A DNA stretch of 39,466 nucleotides from a phage, in the sequence record PZ445457.1. One strand, written 5' to 3'. The translations under genes were made by a program, and so were the position numbers. How positions within the stretch are numbered: position 1 is the stretch's first letter; each line of letters begins with the position of its first letter. Positions 7,499 to 14,637 of this stretch are shown piece by piece. The notes below the pieces were generated by a model, which saw only the letters and a program-made list of their open reading frames with translations, ran no database searches and was not told where the DNA came from.

Positions 7499-9466
7499 AT
7501 GGCTAACAAGATTCGTACTGTGATGACTTACCCGCTGAATGGTGCCGTGAACTTCACGATTACCTTTGATTATCTGGCTCGTAAGTTCATCCAAGTGACA
7601 CTTATTGGTAAAGACCGTAAAGAACTGGTTCTCAATCAGGACTACCGTTTTACCAGTAAGACTCAAATTACAACTACTCGTGCGTGGACTGCCGCTGATG
7701 GCTACCAGATGATTGAGATTCGTCGATTCACTTCGGCTACCGACCGTCTGGTTGATTTTGCTGATGGCTCAATCCTCCGTGCATATGACCTGAACATCTC
7801 GCAGATTCAAACCCTGCACGTTGCCGAAGAAGCACGAGACCTCACTGCGGATACCATTGGTGTCAACAATGATGGTCACTTAGATGCTCGTGGTCGTAAG
7901 ATTGTCAACTTGGCGTATGCCACAAATGACTATGATGCTGTTCCTTTAAAGCAGGTTAAAGAGCGTGAATCCTCTGCATGGAATGCTGTAACAAAGGCTA
8001 ACGAACATGCCGACCGTTCCAATAAGGAAGCAAACCGTTCTCGTGATGAGGCCAACCGTGCTCAACGTGAAGCTGACCGCTCAACTCAACAGGCAGGTGT
8101 CTCTACGCAACAAGCAGTTGAGTCCAAGAAGCAAGCTGACCGTTCCAACTCTGAGGCCAACCGAGCTAAAGGTTATGCTGAAAGTATGACCGCAAGTGTC
8201 GCTGAGGCTAAGAAACAGGCTGACCGTTCCAACTCTGAGGCTAATCGTGCTCGTGATGAGGCCAACCGTGCTGCTGGAGAAGTGACTAAAGCTGCCGCTG
8301 AGGTTGCCAAGGCTGCTGCACACGTTGAGACCGCTAAGGGCCATGCTGACCGAGCCAACACTGAGGCAAACCGCTCTAAGAGTGAAGCTGACCGTGCAAA
8401 GACCGAGGCTGACAAGTTGGGGAACATGAACTCACTGGCTGAGGCTATTGACAGGGTTGAGGCTCCTGATGTTTACTTCAAGAGGAATGTTATAGCCGGA
8501 CACAGATTGGAGACTTCTGGAGGCTCACATCTTCACCCTAATGAGATTAAATTGGTTAACAATAAATCTCCAGACCAGCACTTCATTGTACAAGCGTGGG
8601 GAACTGGAGATCCTAATAATAGGGCGCAGGTGTTTGAGGTGAAGGATAACTTGGGTCAATACGCATTCTATATCCAGCGCCAGAAGAAGACAGACCAAAC
8701 TTGGCAAATGAGTGTGAACGGCTCTCTATCCTGCCAAATAGTAAATTCAAACTTGGGAATAGAATCCACTAACGAGAAGGCCACTGTCAAGTTTAAGACG
8801 TGGGGTGGTGGGTGGGACCAATGGACTGGTGTTGGTGTCCCTAACGTGCAGCATGACATTGCGGGACAGGGAGATGTAGCGTATCTCCTTGAGAGGGCAA
8901 CGATATGGGGCAAGGAACATTTATATGCAAAGGCATTATATAACAACGGCAATGGGGCATCATTCTTCATTCGCCACTACCTGAGAGGGGCATACTTTGA
9001 CCTACGGTCCGATGGCACTCTTATCAGTTCGACTGGTTGGAATATCCCAGCCGATGGCAACCTGTACATCAGGAAGTATGGGCTGTACATTGACGCGTGG
9101 GTCAACAAACGCCTTGGCGAACATGCCTACAACAAGAGCGAGACAGACAACCTAGTGAATGGTCGATTGACACAAGCACAAGCTGATGGGCGATACGTCC
9201 GTAAGAATGCTGGGTGGGCTGAAGTGTGGGAAGGAAGTGCTGGAGGTGGTGTCTCGGTGGGTCTCTCTCAAGATGTCCGCTGGAGAACCATCTGGATTCA
9301 AACACAAGGTCGATGGAACCCTGTTCAAATTGGGGACAATGGGTCTTACTATATCTCATCGAACGGAGGTTGGCTACAGTTTACCATCTCGAATAACGGT
9401 AGAACATTCCGTAACGATGCGGATAGAGCCTCTGTTCCTACGAGAATCTTGGTTCAAAACCAATAA
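7499..9466 (+). CDS. gene 17: Tail fiber protein gp17 (655 aa); conserved N-terminal tail-attachment domain, expanded repetitive shaft, divergent C-terminal receptor-binding region
   Basis: N-terminal ~150 aa and C-terminal tip (WEGSAGGGVSVGLSQDVRWRTIWI...SNGGWLQFTISNNG) match recalled T7 gp17; middle contains ADRSNxEANRA repeats. Confidence 0.95.
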   Translation: MANKIRTVMTYPLNGAVNFTITFDYLARKFIQVTLIGKDRKELVLNQDYRFTSKTQITTTRAWTAADGYQMIEIRRFTSATDRLVDFADGSILRAYDLNISQIQTLHVAEEARDLTADTIGVNNDGHLDARGRKIVNLAYATNDYDAVPLKQVKERESSAWNAVTKANEHADRSNKEANRSRDEANRAQREADRSTQQAGVSTQQAVESKKQADRSNSEANRAKGYAESMTASVAEAKKQADRSNSEANRARDEANRAAGEVTKAAAEVAKAAAHVETAKGHADRANTEANRSKSEADRAKTEADKLGNMNSLAEAIDRVEAPDVYFKRNVIAGHRLETSGGSHLHPNEIKLVNNKSPDQHFIVQAWGTGDPNNRAQVFEVKDNLGQYAFYIQRQKKTDQTWQMSVNGSLSCQIVNSNLGIESTNEKATVKFKTWGGGWDQWTGVGVPNVQHDIAGQGDVAYLLERATIWGKEHLYAKALYNNGNGASFFIRHYLRGAYFDLRSDGTLISSTGWNIPADGNLYIRKYGLYIDAWVNKRLGEHAYNKSETDNLVNGRLTQAQADGRYVRKNAGWAEVWEGSAGGGVSVGLSQDVRWRTIWIQTQGRWNPVQIGDNGSYYISSNGGWLQFTISNNGRTFRNDADRASVPTRILVQNQ

Positions 9467-9510: not shown

Positions 9511-9717
9511 ATGTTGTCATTGGATTTTAACAACGAGGTAGTGAAGGCTGCTCCGATTGTAGGGACAGGTGTAGCCGATGGTGCTGCCAGACTGTTCTTC
9601 GGCCTATCACTTAACGAGTGGTTTTATGTAGCCGCAATTGCCTACACAGTGGCTCAAATTGGTGCCAAGGTAGTCGATGTGGTTATCAAATGGAAGAAGG
9701 AGGGTAGAGATGTCTAA
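9511..9717 (+). CDS. gene 17.5: Class II holin gp17.5 (68 aa)
   Basis: MLSLDFNNEVVKAAPIVGTGVADGAARLFFGLSLNEWFYVAAIAYTVAQIGAKVVD, near identical to recalled T7 gp17.5. Confidence 0.95.
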   Translation: MLSLDFNNEVVKAAPIVGTGVADGAARLFFGLSLNEWFYVAAIAYTVAQIGAKVVDVVIKWKKEGRDV

Positions 9718-9979
9718 CGATAAATCTTTGATTCAATTCCTTGAGATGCTGGATACTGAGATGGCCCAACGTATGCTGAAAGACCTTCAGGATGACGAGA
9801 AGCGCACACCTCAACTGTACAACGCAATCGGGAAACTATTAGAACGCCACAAGTTCCAAGTCTCCAAGTTACAGCCAGACCGTAACATCCTTGGTGGACT
9901 TGCTGATGGACTTCAGGAGTATCAGAACCTAGTAGGCTCCGATGGTCTAACTGAAGATGAGAAGTACACGCTGAACTGA
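9710..9979 (+). CDS. gene 18: Terminase small subunit gp18 (89 aa)
   Basis: Internal ATG at 9710 after RBS aggaggg; MSNDKSLIQFLEMLDTEMAQRML...LYNAIGKLLERHKFQ matches recalled T7 gp18; overlaps 3' end of 17.5. Confidence 0.9.
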   Translation: MSNDKSLIQFLEMLDTEMAQRMLKDLQDDEKRTPQLYNAIGKLLERHKFQVSKLQPDRNILGGLADGLQEYQNLVGSDGLTEDEKYTLN

Positions 9980-10014: not shown

Positions 10015-10077
10015 TATGAATTATCAACACAACTCACGGTGACTCTACGTGAAATCTGAGAAATGGGGAGGGTAGTT

Positions 10078-10518
10078 ATGCTCAAGAATTTAAAGAGCTA
10101 CGCCATCGCTGTGGCCTTTGCCTTGGGACTGACCCTTGCGTACAACCACGGCTATGACAAGGCTGACACTAAATGGAAACTGGAGGTGCACAATGAGTAC
10201 GTTAAGAAAGTTGAGGCGACTGCGGATAAACAGGCTGCTCTCAATGAAGTCTCACGACAATACCAAGAAGACCTTGCGGCGCTGGAAGGCAGCACTGATA
10301 GGGTCATTAATGATTTGCGTAACGATGGTAAGCGGCTGCGTGTCAAACTATCAGCCACCTCACGAGAACTCCAAGCTAACGGTGGATGCCTCGTTGATGG
10401 TCGAGCCGAACTTGACGAAGAGTTTAGTAAGCGTCTTATCGGAGTAACACAAAGAGGGGATGCGTGGATTAGAGCGCTCCAAGGTACAATAACTGAAATG
10501 CAACGTAAGGAGAAATAA
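10078..10518 (+). CDS. gene 18.5: i-spanin (Rz-like) gp18.5
   Basis: N-terminal TM segment, then KWKLEVHNEYVKKVEA...YQEDLAALEGSTDRVINDLRNDGKRLRV...GDAWIRALQ matching recalled T7 gp18.5. Start at second ATG (10078) after RBS ggggagg; 10063 is an alternative. Confidence 0.85.
   Translation: MLKNLKSYAIAVAFALGLTLAYNHGYDKADTKWKLEVHNEYVKKVEATADKQAALNEVSRQYQEDLAALEGSTDRVINDLRNDGKRLRVKLSATSRELQANGGCLVDGRAELDEEFSKRLIGVTQRGDAWIRALQGTITEMQRKEK
10193..10447 (+). CDS. gene 18.7: o-spanin (Rz1-like lipoprotein) gp18.7, embedded in gene 18.5 in +1 frame
   Basis: MSTLRKLRRLR...LIGSLMICVTMVSGCVS (lipobox-like SGC) ...LTVDASLMVEPNLT matches recalled T7 gp18.7; start is an internal ATG of the 10136..10447 track ORF. 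Confidence 0.75.
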   Translation: MSTLRKLRRLRINRLLSMKSHDNTKKTLRRWKAALIGSLMICVTMVSGCVSNYQPPHENSKLTVDASLMVEPNLTKSLVSVLSE

Positions 10519-10519
10519 T

Positions 10520-11077
10520 ATGTCTACTGTAAACTCAAGAACCCGTACAATCTGGACTATCAATGGTCGCTCACCGGACAGCCGCGATATGTACGACCGA
10601 AACAATGTTGGCCTTCGTGTTGGGCGTATCGACATCCCGGCTTCAGAAATGGTCAAGGTAGATGGATACGACAAGGTTGAGTATGTGGTCCAACTGAGTG
10701 ATGGTACAACCGAGCAACATGCTACCTTTGAGATCCTGATGTCCACTTGGGGTGGCTCCGTCGAGTCTAAACCGGGTAGTGGGTTCATGACGGTATTCCT
10801 GAATGAGCAAAGCGCTGAGCGGCTCGGTATGGTTCGAATCGACGTATACAAAGAGTGGACTGGTGCCGACCCTGAACCAGAAGGTGGTTCTGCTTCGTTA
10901 GTTAGTGCAGCGCTTTCTGCGTCTGATAGTGCATTTGGTACACAGTTCGTGGATAGCGAAGGAAAGAGCGCTTCCGTTATGTTCCAACCTAGTAACATCG
11001 ACGGGGCTGTATCTAAGACCGACACTATCAAGGCTCTTGAGAAGCGAATCGCTGCTTTAGAGAAACCTACCGAGTAA
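10520..11077 (+). CDS. Hypothetical protein (185 aa), lineage-specific insertion between 18.5 and terminase large subunit; no recognisable motifs
   Basis: Strong RBS taaggag 7 nt upstream, natural-looking composition, no Cys/His motifs, C-terminal amphipathic helix KTDTIKALEKRIAALEK. No T7 counterpart at this position that I recall. Confidence 0.7.
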   Translation: MSTVNSRTRTIWTINGRSPDSRDMYDRNNVGLRVGRIDIPASEMVKVDGYDKVEYVVQLSDGTTEQHATFEILMSTWGGSVESKPGSGFMTVFLNEQSAERLGMVRIDVYKEWTGADPEPEGGSASLVSAALSASDSAFGTQFVDSEGKSASVMFQPSNIDGAVSKTDTIKALEKRIAALEKPTE

Positions 11078-11092
11078 CAATAGGAGGCCACA

Positions 11093-12853
11093 ATGTCGCA
11101 ATCCCAAGAAGCTAAGAATGCGCTCATCATTGCGCAACTTAAGGGTGACTTCGTGGCCTTCCTGTTCGTCTTATGGAAGGCTCTGAACTTACCTAAACCA
11201 ACCAAGTGTCAGATTGATATGGCACGTACACTCGCTAATGGCGACCACAAGAAGTTTATCCTACAGGCGTTCCGTGGTATCGGGAAGTCCTTTATCACCT
11301 GTGCGTTCGTCGTGTGGGTGCTATGGCGTGACCCTCAATTGAAGATACTCATCGTGTCTGCCTCCAAGGAACGTGCTGATGCTAACTCCATCTTCATCAA
11401 GAACATTATCGACCTCCTTCCGTTCCTCTCTGAGTTGAAACCTCGACCGGGACAGCGAGACTCCGTGATTAGCTTCGATGTGGGATTGGCTAAACCAGAC
11501 CACTCTCCCTCTGTGAAGTCTGTAGGTATCACTGGTCAGTTGACTGGTAGCCGTGCTGACATCATTATCGCAGATGACGTTGAGGTTCCCGGTAATAGCT
11601 CTACGAGTTCTGCCCGTGAGAAGCTCTGGACGTTGGTAACTGAGTTTGCTGCATTACTTAAGCCGCTGCCTACCTCTCGTGTTATCTACCTTGGCACACC
11701 TCAAACTGAGATGACGCTCTACAAGGAACTTGAGGATAACAAAGGGTACAGCACAGTAATCTGGCCGGCACAGTATCCTCGTAACAATGCTGAGGCTCTC
11801 TACTATGGGGACCGCTTGGCTCCGATGCTTAAGGCTGAATACGATGAAGGCTATGAGTTACTTCGTGGTCAACCTACTGACCCTGTTCGATTCGACATGG
11901 ATGACCTCCGTGAGCGTGAACTCGAATATGGTAAAGCTGGCTACACTCTTCAGTTCATGCTTAACCCGAACCTTAGTGATGCCGAGAAGTACCCGCTACG
12001 ACTCCGTGACGCTATCGTGTGCGCTGTGGACCCTGAACGTGCCCCATTGTCTTACCAGTGGTTGCCGAACCGTCAGAACCGCAATGAGGAACTCCCTAAC
12101 GTTGGTCTGAAGGGTGATGACATCCATGCGTTCCATACGTGCTCTTCTCGTACCGCTGAGTATCAGTCTAAGATTCTGGTCATTGACCCAAGTGGTCGTG
12201 GTAAGGATGAGACCGGGTATGCAGTCCTCTACTCACTGAACGGTTACATCTACCTGATGGAAGTCGGAGGGTTCCGTGGTGGCTACGATGATGCTACCCT
12301 AGAGAAGCTCGCTAAGAAGGCCAAGCAGTGGAAGGTACAGACAGTCGTCCACGAGTCCAACTTCGGTGACGGTATGTTCGGTAAGATTTTCTCTCCGATT
12401 CTCCTGAAGCACCATAAGTGTGCCTTAGAGGAAATCCGTGCTAAGGGCATGAAGGAGATGCGAATCTGCGATACTATCGAGCCGTTGATGGGTGCACACA
12501 AGCTGGTCATTCGTGATGAGGTTATCCGTGAGGACTACCAGACTGCTCGTGACCTTGATGGGAAACATGATGTCCGCTACAGTGCGTTCTATCAGATGAC
12601 CCGTATGACCCGTGAGCGAGGCGCTGTGGCACACGATGACCGCATTGATGCTATCGCATTGGGTATCGAGTTCCTTCGTGAAGGGATGCTTGTGGACAGC
12701 CGTGTAGGTGAAGAAGAGATGACCCTTGAGTTCCTTGAACACCACATGGAGAGACAGACCATTGGTGGTGATGCTATCCATAGCTACGAGGCTGGTGGCG
12801 TAGACATCTACTACGAGGACGATGGAGACTCTAGCTGCTTCATTGAGTGGTAA
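11093..12853 (+). CDS. gene 19: Terminase large subunit gp19 (586 aa)
   Basis: [34 protein letters not shown]... essentially collinear with recalled T7 gp19; ATPase and nuclease regions conserved. Confidence 0.97.
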
Positions 12854-12940
12854 TAGATAAGTATGCGGGAAAGGTGCATAGGTAAGCACTTAGTACCGCT
12901 ACGTTACCGTTAAGTAACTTACTGATATACATGAAGAAAT

Positions 12941-12963
12941 TAATACGACTCACTATTGGGAAG
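12941..12963 (+). promoter_or_regulatory. Phage RNAP promoter (phiOR-like), upstream of gene 19.5
   Basis: taatacgactcactattgggaag. Confidence 0.8.
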
Positions 12964-13120
12964 GGCACCCTAAGACAACTTAAAGACACTTAAAGACTGC
13001 ATATGCAAAGTGCATACTTAATGACTAACTCTTAGAGACCCTTACAGTGAGGGATGATGGTAATAGTAATTACATCCCTACTATCAGTGTAACCATCAAG
13101 TATAACAAGGAGGACGCTCT

Positions 13121-13276
13121 ATGCGCTTACTATCCGTACTCAAGACACTGGCAACGCATCGAGTGACTTACAAATTTCTCGTTGTACTTGCTGCTTCCAC
13201 TGGTCTCGCATCTAGTGCTGAACACATCGGTGAACTGGAGACTCTGCTTTGTTCTCTACTCACTTGTGTTCCTTAG
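13121..13276 (+). CDS. gene 19.5: gp19.5-like small membrane protein (51 aa)
   Basis: MRLLSVLKTLATHRVTYKFLVVLAASTGLASS...LLCSLLTCVP resembles recalled T7 gp19.5; RBS aaggagg upstream; below the track 60-aa cutoff. Confidence 0.65.
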   Translation: MRLLSVLKTLATHRVTYKFLVVLAASTGLASSAEHIGELETLLCSLLTCVP

Positions 13277-13738
13277 ACTGCTCATCGGCGCTTAGTGCGC
13301 TCTTAGTGATTATGGTCGATATATACATCTTCCCTATAATCACTGTAAGAAGTCAACTCTAAGAGTAACCCTTATGTACCACTCTCTATGGTCTACAGGG
13401 TCTCTTAGGGTCTCTCACGTAGTCTCACCGCTATGCTCCTGCGTAGCACCTTATGATAGAGCCTCTGTGGTTAACCTTATGAGCCTTGATGTACCCCCCT
13501 TTAAGAATCCTACAGAAAAATCTGAGAGGGTATCTCATAGTTCATACAAAGTGTTTCCCCCCTATGGCCTCCTTCAGTCCACTCAAAGAGTGCCACCCCT
13601 ATGGTAACTTTATGTTTACTTAATGTCAATCCTTATGTGAGACATTGGGATGACTTATGGTTCACCACTAGATGTGGTGCTTAGGGTGACTTAGTGATAC
13701 TATATGTAGTCCTCTATGTGTCCCTATCTGTAAGTGAC

Positions 13739-13868
13739 CTTTGAGTCATCACCTTATGTTTCCTCTTTGAGTCATCACCTTATGTTTCCTCTTTGAGTCA
13801 TCACCTTATGTTTCCTCTTTGAGTCATCACCTTATGTTTCCTCTTTGAGTTAACACCTTATGACCTCC
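13739..13868 (+). repeat. Tandem direct repeat, 26-bp unit ctttgagtcatcaccttatgtttcct, 4 exact copies plus 1 degenerate
   Basis: Directly visible at 13739-13842 with a diverged fifth copy to 13868; positionally analogous to the T7 left-end repeat array just inside the terminal repeat. Confidence 0.9.
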
Positions 13869-13982
13869 TTATGGCTGGCTATCCTTATGTTAACCTTCAG
13901 TCGGTGCCTTATGTTTATCAGTGACCAGTAGGCTACGTCACTAAGAGAGAATCACTATCTTACTCTGTTTAGCAGTCTCTGA

Positions 13983-14021
<39 letters not shown>

Positions 14022-14077
14022 AGTAGAATTGACTGAGTGCTTATAGTGCCTTAAAGCTGGTTTATAGTCAATAGCCT

Positions 14078-14100
14078 TTATACGACTCACTAATGGGATA
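14078..14100 (+). promoter_or_regulatory. Phage RNAP promoter (phiOL-like)
   Basis: ttatacgactcactaatgggata, first phage promoter after the genome-end region. Confidence 0.65.
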
Positions 14101-14184
14101 GGTTGATTATGGTCTAATTATAATCCCTCCTTATAGTGCTAACTTAAAGACCACTTAAAAGATAACTTAAAGTCTAACTAAGGG

Positions 14185-14213
14185 TTGACTCTAAGAAACA
14201 ACTATGTTCTAAT
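14185..14213 (+). promoter_or_regulatory. Host sigma70-type early promoter (A1-like)
   Basis: TTGACT, 17-nt spacer, TCTAAT. Confidence 0.6.
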
Positions 14214-14322
14214 GGCTACCAGTTGAGAGAGACACAACGCTACCAACTACCAGACAAGACCTAGAGTTATCTGGTAAGGCTGAAGGGTCTCAAGTAGTCA
14301 TCAACCAGACATACGAAAGTGG

Positions 14323-14351
14323 TTGACTCAACGAAAGCAATAACGTAGTAT
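14323..14351 (+). promoter_or_regulatory. Host sigma70-type early promoter (A2-like)
   Basis: TTGACT, 17-nt spacer, TAGTAT. Confidence 0.6.
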
Positions 14352-14416
14352 AGCAGTCGTCAACAACTGATCGCCCTCTGAAACAACATGAGGTGTCATG
14401 GTGAGAAACAAAGTAG

Positions 14417-14446
14417 TTGACAAGTAGTGACGATAAGATGTAAGAT
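14417..14446 (+). promoter_or_regulatory. Host sigma70-type early promoter (A3-like)
   Basis: TTGACA, 18-nt spacer, TAAGAT followed by GTACCAC as in recalled T7 A3. Confidence 0.6.
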
Positions 14447-14637
14447 GTACCACGACATAACGTTCTTGTGATGTCCCACACTGAAAGGGACTCGGTGCTA
14501 ACGAAGCCTGCACTTAAAGCTCTTTAACAATTTGGATGAATAGCACTCTTGAGATGACGACAACAGCGATTAACTCAAGGTGACTCGAAAGAGAGAAGCC
14601 TTTATGATAATCACTGCAACCACATAAGGTAATCATC

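Follow-up and report, generated by a model that had tools for sequence, protein, structure and literature searches.

A selected, optional gene between the spanin and large terminase genes of Berlinvirus phages may encode an accessory virion fibre or decoration

Results and Discussion

A 185-aa ORF located between the i-spanin gene (gp18.5) and the gene for the large terminase (TerL) of a T7-like phage is a real, functional coding gene under purifying selection and, within the genus, a presence/absence polymorphism. Its product may well be, at a confidence that we place just short of an even balance, a fibre, whisker or decoration that the virion carries as a dispensable accessory, built on a new anchor domain; this proposal draws on module homologies in related proteins. 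The window, i.e., the whole stretch of 39,466 bp that was analysed, is a circularly permuted phage genome of the genus Berlinvirus (Autographiviridae, Studiervirinae).

Genomic context and evidence for coding

The 2.1 kb surrounding the junction ORF share 92-95% identity with the phages ETEP21B, PhiV-1, BA14 and 285P (Escherichia), FE44 (Erwinia) and BSP161 (Salmonella), and in a 25-kb comparison the best record reached only ~93-94% identity. The features of the locus are listed in Table 1.

Table 1. Coordinates of the junction ORF, its parts and the neighbouring features in the window
Feature	Position	Strand	Remarks
gp17 tail fibre	7499..9466		Local order: gp17, holin, small terminase, i-spanin, 185-aa ORF, TerL
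i-spanin gp18.5	10063..10518		o-spanin embedded; TAA stop at 10516-10518
Shine-Dalgarno AAGGAG	10507..10512	+	Inside the final gp18.5 codons, 7 nt 5' of the ATG
Junction ORF	10520..11077	+	Complete; 185 aa, 20.05 kDa, pI 4.8
N-terminal domain, aa 1-121	10520..10882	+	Conserved, closes with the invariant DPEPE; proposed virion anchor
Variable middle, aa 122-156	10883..10987	+	Gly/Ser/Ala-rich linker and short predicted beta-hairpin module (AFGTQFVDSEGKSASVMF)
C-terminal helix-turn-helix or short coiled coil, aa 157-185, with stop	10988..11077	+	Ends in ...TIKALEKRIAALEKPTE
Large terminase TerL	11093..12853		Own AGGAGG at 11082-11087; start 15 nt past the junction ORF

The initial annotation, made from the letters of the window alone, had described a well-formed ORF with a strong Shine-Dalgarno sequence and a natural-looking composition, and our analysis bore this out. 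The GC content of the ORF is 0.503 versus 0.487 for the genome, and its codon-usage index of 0.69 falls inside the range of the neighbouring genes. Since the Shine-Dalgarno sequence lies within the end of gp18.5, and the gp18.5 stop ends 1 nt before the ATG of the junction ORF, translation of the two genes is coupled. Between gp18.5 and TerL, the plus strand was found to contain no sigma-70-like promoter or terminator-like site. The same annotation had suggested "a moron or accessory protein". The accessory part of that suggestion stands, with about half of the close relatives lacking the gene, while a moron in the strict sense was rejected: the gene lacks both a promoter and a terminator of its own, is native in GC content and codon usage, and is coupled inside the late operon.

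When the ORF was compared with those of BA14, FE44 and BSP161, dN/dS values of 0.14-0.18 were obtained, the comparisons of the window ORF with orthologues comprising 31-37 synonymous and 19-24 non-synonymous substitutions, which identifies the junction ORF as coding sequence maintained by selection rather than a fortuitous reading frame. A chance or decaying ORF devoid of function could be suspected from the dispensability of the gene and from the internal deletion carried by one relative (Carena); it is effectively refuted by these dN/dS values, and is further contradicted by the strong ribosome-binding site, by a confidently predicted fold and by an ORF that has stayed intact in almost every one of the 57 phage records that carry it, as well as in metagenomic contigs. 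We give this explanation practically no weight.

Distribution of the gene and of the empty junction

A tblastn search with the 185-aa protein returned 57 phage records, comprising Yersinia, Escherichia, Erwinia, Salmonella and Enterobacter phages. Genus assignment covers the inspected records, which belong to Berlinvirus with the addition of one Helsettvirus (YpEc11), in accordance with the lineage-specific distribution first proposed. Orthologues with 91-96% identity are present in ETEP21B, PhiV-1, BA14, FE44, 285P, P483, S523, BSP161 and PZJ0206. In every inspected cultured-phage locus the gene is located at the spanin/TerL junction, where it is labelled "unknown product" or hypothetical, and the same placement was observed in metagenomic T7-like contigs of ~39 kb. 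The distant metagenomic members of the family added no cultured-phage hosts beyond the same 57 records.

A comparison of this junction across T7-like genomes had been suggested together with the initial annotation. Using the empty junction of phage ErnstBeyeler as the query, we counted the records listed with flanks at least 90% identical; among these matches, ~30 have the spanin gene abutting TerL directly and ~30 carry the insert. A direct spanin-TerL junction is found in ErnstBeyeler, P694, vB_ShiP-A7, Kvp1, PP74 and BP12A. T7 itself has a direct 18.5-19 junction, as do many T7 relatives, which agrees with the statement in the annotation that gene 19 of T7 directly follows 18.5/18.7. Escherichia phage Carena (locus L003, 1013-1240) has undergone a 330-bp in-frame deletion between GCTTC microhomologies, leaving a 75-aa remnant composed of 42 N-terminal and 33 C-terminal residues. 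That about half of the close relatives have an empty junction, and that Carena carries its deletion, indicates that the gene is dispensable for plaque formation, a property in keeping with decoration or whisker proteins.

The first 200 aa of TerL (11093..11692) are 100% identical between the window and ErnstBeyeler (locus L008), which lacks the 185-aa gene; both begin with MSQSQEAKN, in contrast to MSTQANKN in BA14 and Carena. Unlike the TerL N-terminus, the junction ORF is closest to those of ETEP21B and PhiV-1, and this discrepancy suggests that a recombination boundary lies at the junction or close to it. The same data bear on the question of whether the gene serves lysis or packaging, for example as a regulator of spanin, holin or terminase. 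It adjoins the i-spanin gene, is coupled to it, ends 15 nt upstream of TerL and keeps this position at all inspected loci. The spanin and TerL flanks, however, have at least 90% DNA identity in phages that lack the gene, with the N-terminus of TerL indistinguishable from that of the non-carrier ErnstBeyeler, and the 185-aa sequence contains no signal peptide, transmembrane segment or lipobox. The fibre-type modules of its relatives, described below, would have no obvious role in either process, and we consider a lysis or packaging function improbable.

The junction is also occupied by other inserts. In Yersinia phage fPS-54-ocr, a 131-aa HNH-like ORF (g043; locus L010, 1634-2029) is found in the same place, with no sequence homology to the 185-aa protein, and the Dickeya Aarhusviruses fill the same Rz/TerL junction with a 204-aa protein. 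Further downstream in fPS-54-ocr (L010, 2001-4486), TerL is seemingly split into g044 and g046 with the HNH endonuclease g045 between them, which could be an interruption of the homing-endonuclease or intron type. For the window protein itself, an HNH or homing-endonuclease identity was rejected, in agreement with the annotated absence of cysteine and of nuclease-like motifs: the protein has one His and no Cys, and no Pfam match.

A junction that acts as an insertion hot spot, as the HNH-like ORF of fPS-54-ocr illustrates, would also suit an intracellular host-interaction or counter-defence factor, i.e., "moron-like" cargo that is useful only in hosts with particular defence systems. The patchy presence of the gene among close relatives, its restriction to one lineage and its small, acidic (pI 4.8), soluble product are all compatible with such a role. 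Against it stand the native composition and the lack of an own promoter or terminator, as well as the location of the gene in the late region, given that the host-takeover and anti-defence genes known in the T7 group are early or middle genes. In addition, the repeated gain of tail-fibre and head-fibre modules would be hard to explain for a cytoplasmic inhibitor, and no PADLOC-type or Pfam signature appeared in a scan consisting of Pfam and PHROGs only. We therefore regard a host-interaction factor as not very likely.

Searches for a known family

Two PHROG families, both labelled function unknown, were the only ones found. The protein matched phrog_20446 over its entire length (E 1.9e-121; residues 1-185 versus profile positions 1-185 of 185) and phrog_27102 over the N-terminal domain (E 2.8e-47; residues 4-127). 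Members of PHROGs 20446 and 27102 are orthologues that belong to the same family and have the same genome position; they include the BA14 protein ACF15774.1, an "unknown product" between genes 18.7 and 19, and hypothetical proteins of FE44, 285P, P483 and the Yersinia phages Berlin, Yepe2 and Yep-phi, the Yep-phi orthologue being 201 aa long. As databases have long listed this sequence as a hypothetical protein, the ORF itself is not a discovery, and the earlier description of the gene as undescribed does not hold for its sequence.

The statement that no family could be recognised was upheld in the sense that profile, PDB and structure searches led to no characterised family. A Pfam scan with E values up to 10 gave no match, the PF03906 (Phage_T7_tail) domain included. 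A profile search of PDB sequences returned noise only, with designed coiled coils at E ~1, and a Foldseek comparison of the AlphaFold2 (AF2) model with the PDB gave nothing with E <0.03. Beyond orthologues, the structure search of BFVD retrieved only proteins of comparable length that are themselves uncharacterised, the Dickeya junction protein among them. A search of 5.8 billion proteins yielded 16 clusters, and an exhaustive profile search of 1.84 billion representatives revealed only ~20 proteins that share the N-terminal domain, all of 188-270 aa. In these searches, no known family of head-fibre or decoration proteins was matched by sequence or by fold.

Two apparent similarities were rejected. 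A resemblance to the gp17 N-terminus (MANKIRTVMTYPLNG versus MSTVNSRTRTIWTINGR) was dismissed, as BLAST and hhalign found nothing against gp17 and 17 other proteins of the window, with a probability of 0.1% in hhalign for the family profile against the window gp17. A weak match between the C-terminal part and PHROG 1857 ("head-tail connector"; E 0.22) was attributed to coiled-coil noise. Among the accessible papers, our literature search found none on the junction gene and no virion proteomics or structure for carrier phages; the one Berlinvirus virion proteome among them, from vB_ShiP-A7 (PMC8427288), is that of a phage without the gene.

Protein anatomy and predicted structure

The N-terminal domain is predicted by AF2 to form a beta-sandwich with one helix, with pLDDT values of ~80-93 across most of residues 1-120 and weaker blocks near residues 41-50 and 81-90. 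Alignment of 17 homologues revealed 33 invariant columns in this domain, the sole part common to all family members. Its dN/dS is 0.09-0.14, compared with 0.23-0.45 for aa 122-185. The middle region is poorly predicted (pLDDT <50, with poor confidence across residues 123-166) and corresponds to the position at which relatives carry cassettes derived from tail fibres. The Gly/Ser-rich linker of the initial annotation was found here, residues 120-150 containing 8 Ser, 5 Ala and 4 Gly, and so was the C-terminal amphipathic helix: the helical hydrophobic moment of the protein peaks in its last 18 residues, with I-L-I-L at heptad a/d positions, and AF2 predicts helices at residues 157-164 and 167-181. 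The heptad helix (...IKALEKRIAALEKPAE) is kept in most alleles whatever the middle cassette, and the predicted element of aa 157-185 is probably an oligomerisation element.

Fibre modules in related proteins

The window allele is a short form, with a beta-hairpin module, a helix of only two heptads and no fibre cassette, and the fibre interpretation rests on its relatives. Long alleles of 250-300 aa (the Yersinia Yepf type, pEa_SNUABM_57 and metagenomic members) contain ~100 extra aa in the middle that match tail-fibre PHROG 6578, with E values of 1e-6 to 2e-4 for the members P0007, P0012 and P0016; a Yersinia-type allele with the tail-fibre domain has 256 aa. The scanned proteins outside the family that have the same ~100-aa domain mostly belong to PHROGs of tail-fibre, minor-tail or virion structural proteins.

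The one relative with a gp17 shaft is P0017, whose residues 114-219 match positions 140-245 of PHROG 4242 (E 5.5e-9), the PHROG to which the gp17 of the window belongs. This match starts at a DPDAVDL / DYDAVPL motif aligned with gp17 residue 144. In T7 gp17, the tail-attachment domain comprises residues 1-149 and is followed by the shaft, the start of which corresponds to this match point. As the match begins where the gp17 shaft starts, the N-terminal domain of the family takes the place of a known virion-anchor domain. A third module is present in P0028, the C-terminal end of which corresponds to PHROG 5004 (E 5e-15); the same module is found in the 204-aa junction protein of Dickeya phages Katbat and Dagda, whose C-terminus matches PHROG 4366, "head fiber protein" (E 7e-5). 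It should be noted that "tail fiber" and "head fiber" are names given in PHROG annotation and not experimental findings. Taken together, a conserved N-terminal domain where gp17 has its anchor, fibre modules that can be swapped and a helix for oligomerisation make up the layout of a virion-attached fibre. Among the roles listed in the initial annotation (virion decoration, packaging accessory or host-interaction factor), it is virion decoration that is favoured by these module homologies.

The metagenomic T7-like contig ERR11558579_1687 (locus L013, 348-2823) encodes a 279-aa family member, and its receptor-binding proteins are a 266-aa T7-tail adaptor and a 566-aa pectate-lyase tailspike, with no gp17 fibre. 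The presence of a family member beside a tailspike system shows that the junction protein does not depend on which type of fibre a phage has.

This independence weighs against another explanation, in which the product would be a non-virion morphogenetic helper, i.e., a chaperone or assembly factor for gp17 or another late structure that stays in the infected cell. Such a helper would be consistent with late expression ~1 kb downstream of gp17, with the observation that all phages whose gp17 is closest to that of the window carry the gene, and with the existence of optional fibre chaperones among phages. Yet gp17 proteins of PHROG 4242 with 60-80% identity work in Sekstaphage-1, vB_SEqdws-315 and PcCB251, all of which have an empty junction, and the family member of the tailspike contig occurs in a genome where adaptor and pectate-lyase tailspike replace the fibre. 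A tail-fibre assembly chaperone (Caudo_TAP and related) was rejected for want of any chaperone match in Pfam or PHROG and of co-variation with the fibre tip, the ORF being at least 91% identical where gp17 ranges from 68% to 91%. Furthermore, a gp17 shaft of its own, as in P0017, is typical of a fibre and not of a chaperone. We consider a morphogenetic helper unlikely.

A model for an accessory virion protein

Returning to the accessory fibre, whisker or decoration, the sequence context shows transcription of the gene together with the class III late genes, and translation coupled to that of the spanin gene; at all inspected loci its setting is the late structural, packaging and lysis block. 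The N-terminal beta-sandwich of ~120 residues would then dock on a conserved part of the particle, which may be the capsid, the neck or the proximal tail, and the C-terminal heptad helix would join the chains into an oligomer, probably a trimer. The module homologies show that the segment between these two parts is a cassette slot, which holds only the beta-hairpin in the window allele and a gp17-type coiled-coil shaft or a tail-fibre domain in relatives. Virion incorporation, attachment site, oligomeric state and physiological role are thus aspects that we infer. An argument against the fibre interpretation is that T7 and T3-type phages build the same kind of particle without this gene.

In phages that infect E. 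coli, Salmonella, Enterobacter or Erwinia, the short allele keeps 91-96% identity, whereas their gp17 proteins, the most divergent among the compared proteins of carrier phages, share 68-91% identity. An allele that remains this constant while gp17 drops to 68% probably has a conserved partner, for example the particle itself, the base of gp17 or a common component of the envelope. From these patterns, it is unlikely that the junction protein determines host range at the strain level; a fibritin-like or head-fibre-like helper in adsorption, stability or fibre deployment appears more likely than a strain-specific adhesin.

More tentatively, and as a possibility that we hold with less confidence than the virion location itself, Berlinvirus, Helsettvirus and possibly Aarhusvirus may carry a second, dispensable fibre system with a new beta-sandwich anchor and a slot that trades modules with gp17. 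The window allele would then be a fibritin-like whisker or head fibre that modulates adsorption, gp17 deployment or stability, and not strain specificity.

Comparison with known fibre and decoration systems

Compared with the T7/T3-type gp17, which consists of a PF03906 N-terminal domain, a coiled-coil shaft and a distal tip, the window allele lacks the PF03906 domain, the shaft and a receptor-binding domain. The proposed arrangement resembles that of T4 fibritin (wac), the phi29 head fibre gp8.5 and the PhiM1 alpha-paw, which are dispensable and combine a small anchor with a coiled-coil or fibrous extension. The window protein, however, has no sequence or fold similarity to fibritin, gp8.5 or the alpha-paw, and its location on the particle is one that we only infer. 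Cryo-EM of Pectobacterium phage PhiM1 revealed two capsid decoration proteins, one of which bears a fibre (PMC11440229). Directly downstream of TerL, the PhiM1 genome (locus L011, 15734-16472) contains two small genes whose sizes fit these decoration proteins (PMC11440229), and these two genes beside TerL offer a positional precedent, by analogy, for the junction gene. In KP34, only ORFs of 124 and 52 aa were found beside TerL, with no Sibilus-like 205-aa protein.

The 204-aa protein of the Dickeya phages Katbat, Dagda, Luksen and Mysterion (Aarhusvirus) resembles the window protein in its junction, its similar size, its N-terminal beta domain, its low-complexity linker and its C-terminal helices, and the Dagda protein was a weak Foldseek match of the window model (E 3e-3). 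No sequence homology was detectable between the Katbat and window proteins (hhalign probability 2.5%), and the Katbat/Dagda protein may be a functional analogue in another genus. The Katbat gene (L009:1022-1636, identical in Dagda) encodes a coiled coil with ERVAALEEAL and a C-terminal helix-turn-helix, the latter matching PHROG 4366. A relationship of the Katbat C-terminal module to the PhiM1 alpha-claw was rejected, the two having no sequence similarity and belonging to different PHROGs, which leaves a positional analogy only.

Implications

T7 serves as the textbook example of a minimal podovirus, and the usual description gives it a smooth capsid and one set of six fibres. If confirmed in its close relatives, an additional, optional fibre or decoration would alter this picture, and the N-terminal domain would represent a new virion-anchor domain usable for display or for host-range engineering. 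To the deposited sequence, our analysis adds that the gene is polymorphic for presence or absence and that its family trades modules with gp17, and it proposes as a hypothesis that T7-like phages have a second fibre system, the anchor of which has a novel fold. The carriers include the Yersinia pestis phages Berlin and Yep-phi, as well as PhiV-1, a phage used in studies of anti-phage defence. The gene could help to explain phenotype differences between near-identical pairs such as P483 and P694 or PhiV-1 and ErnstBeyeler. Natural carrier/non-carrier pairs and a natural in-frame deletion mutant (Carena) already exist. Should the protein be absent from virions, the gene would still be a late accessory gene under selection that awaits characterisation and encodes a new fold.

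Additional features of the window

An antisense ORF of 281 aa (10360..11205, minus strand) covers the whole junction ORF and enters both neighbours, without homologue support; as the pattern at synonymous sites matches the plus-strand frame, it is a shadow ORF. Antisense "proteins" of a similar kind have been reported from MS data in vB_ShiP-A7 (PMC8427288), and such reports deserve scepticism. The small-terminase ORF was listed at 9677..9979 (100 aa), whereas annotated orthologues have 89 aa, and on this basis its true start is ATG 9710 (MSNDKSL...), with an 8-nt overlap with the end of the holin gene. Downstream of TerL, a stretch of ~1.7 kb (12890..14637) extends to the first early gene with no ORF of at least 80 aa on either strand; this segment presumably comprises the genome ends, the terminal repeat, the early promoter region and small genes such as 19.5. 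The shaft of the window gp17 (7499..9466) contains many near-repeats of ADRSN(S/K)EANR(A/S).
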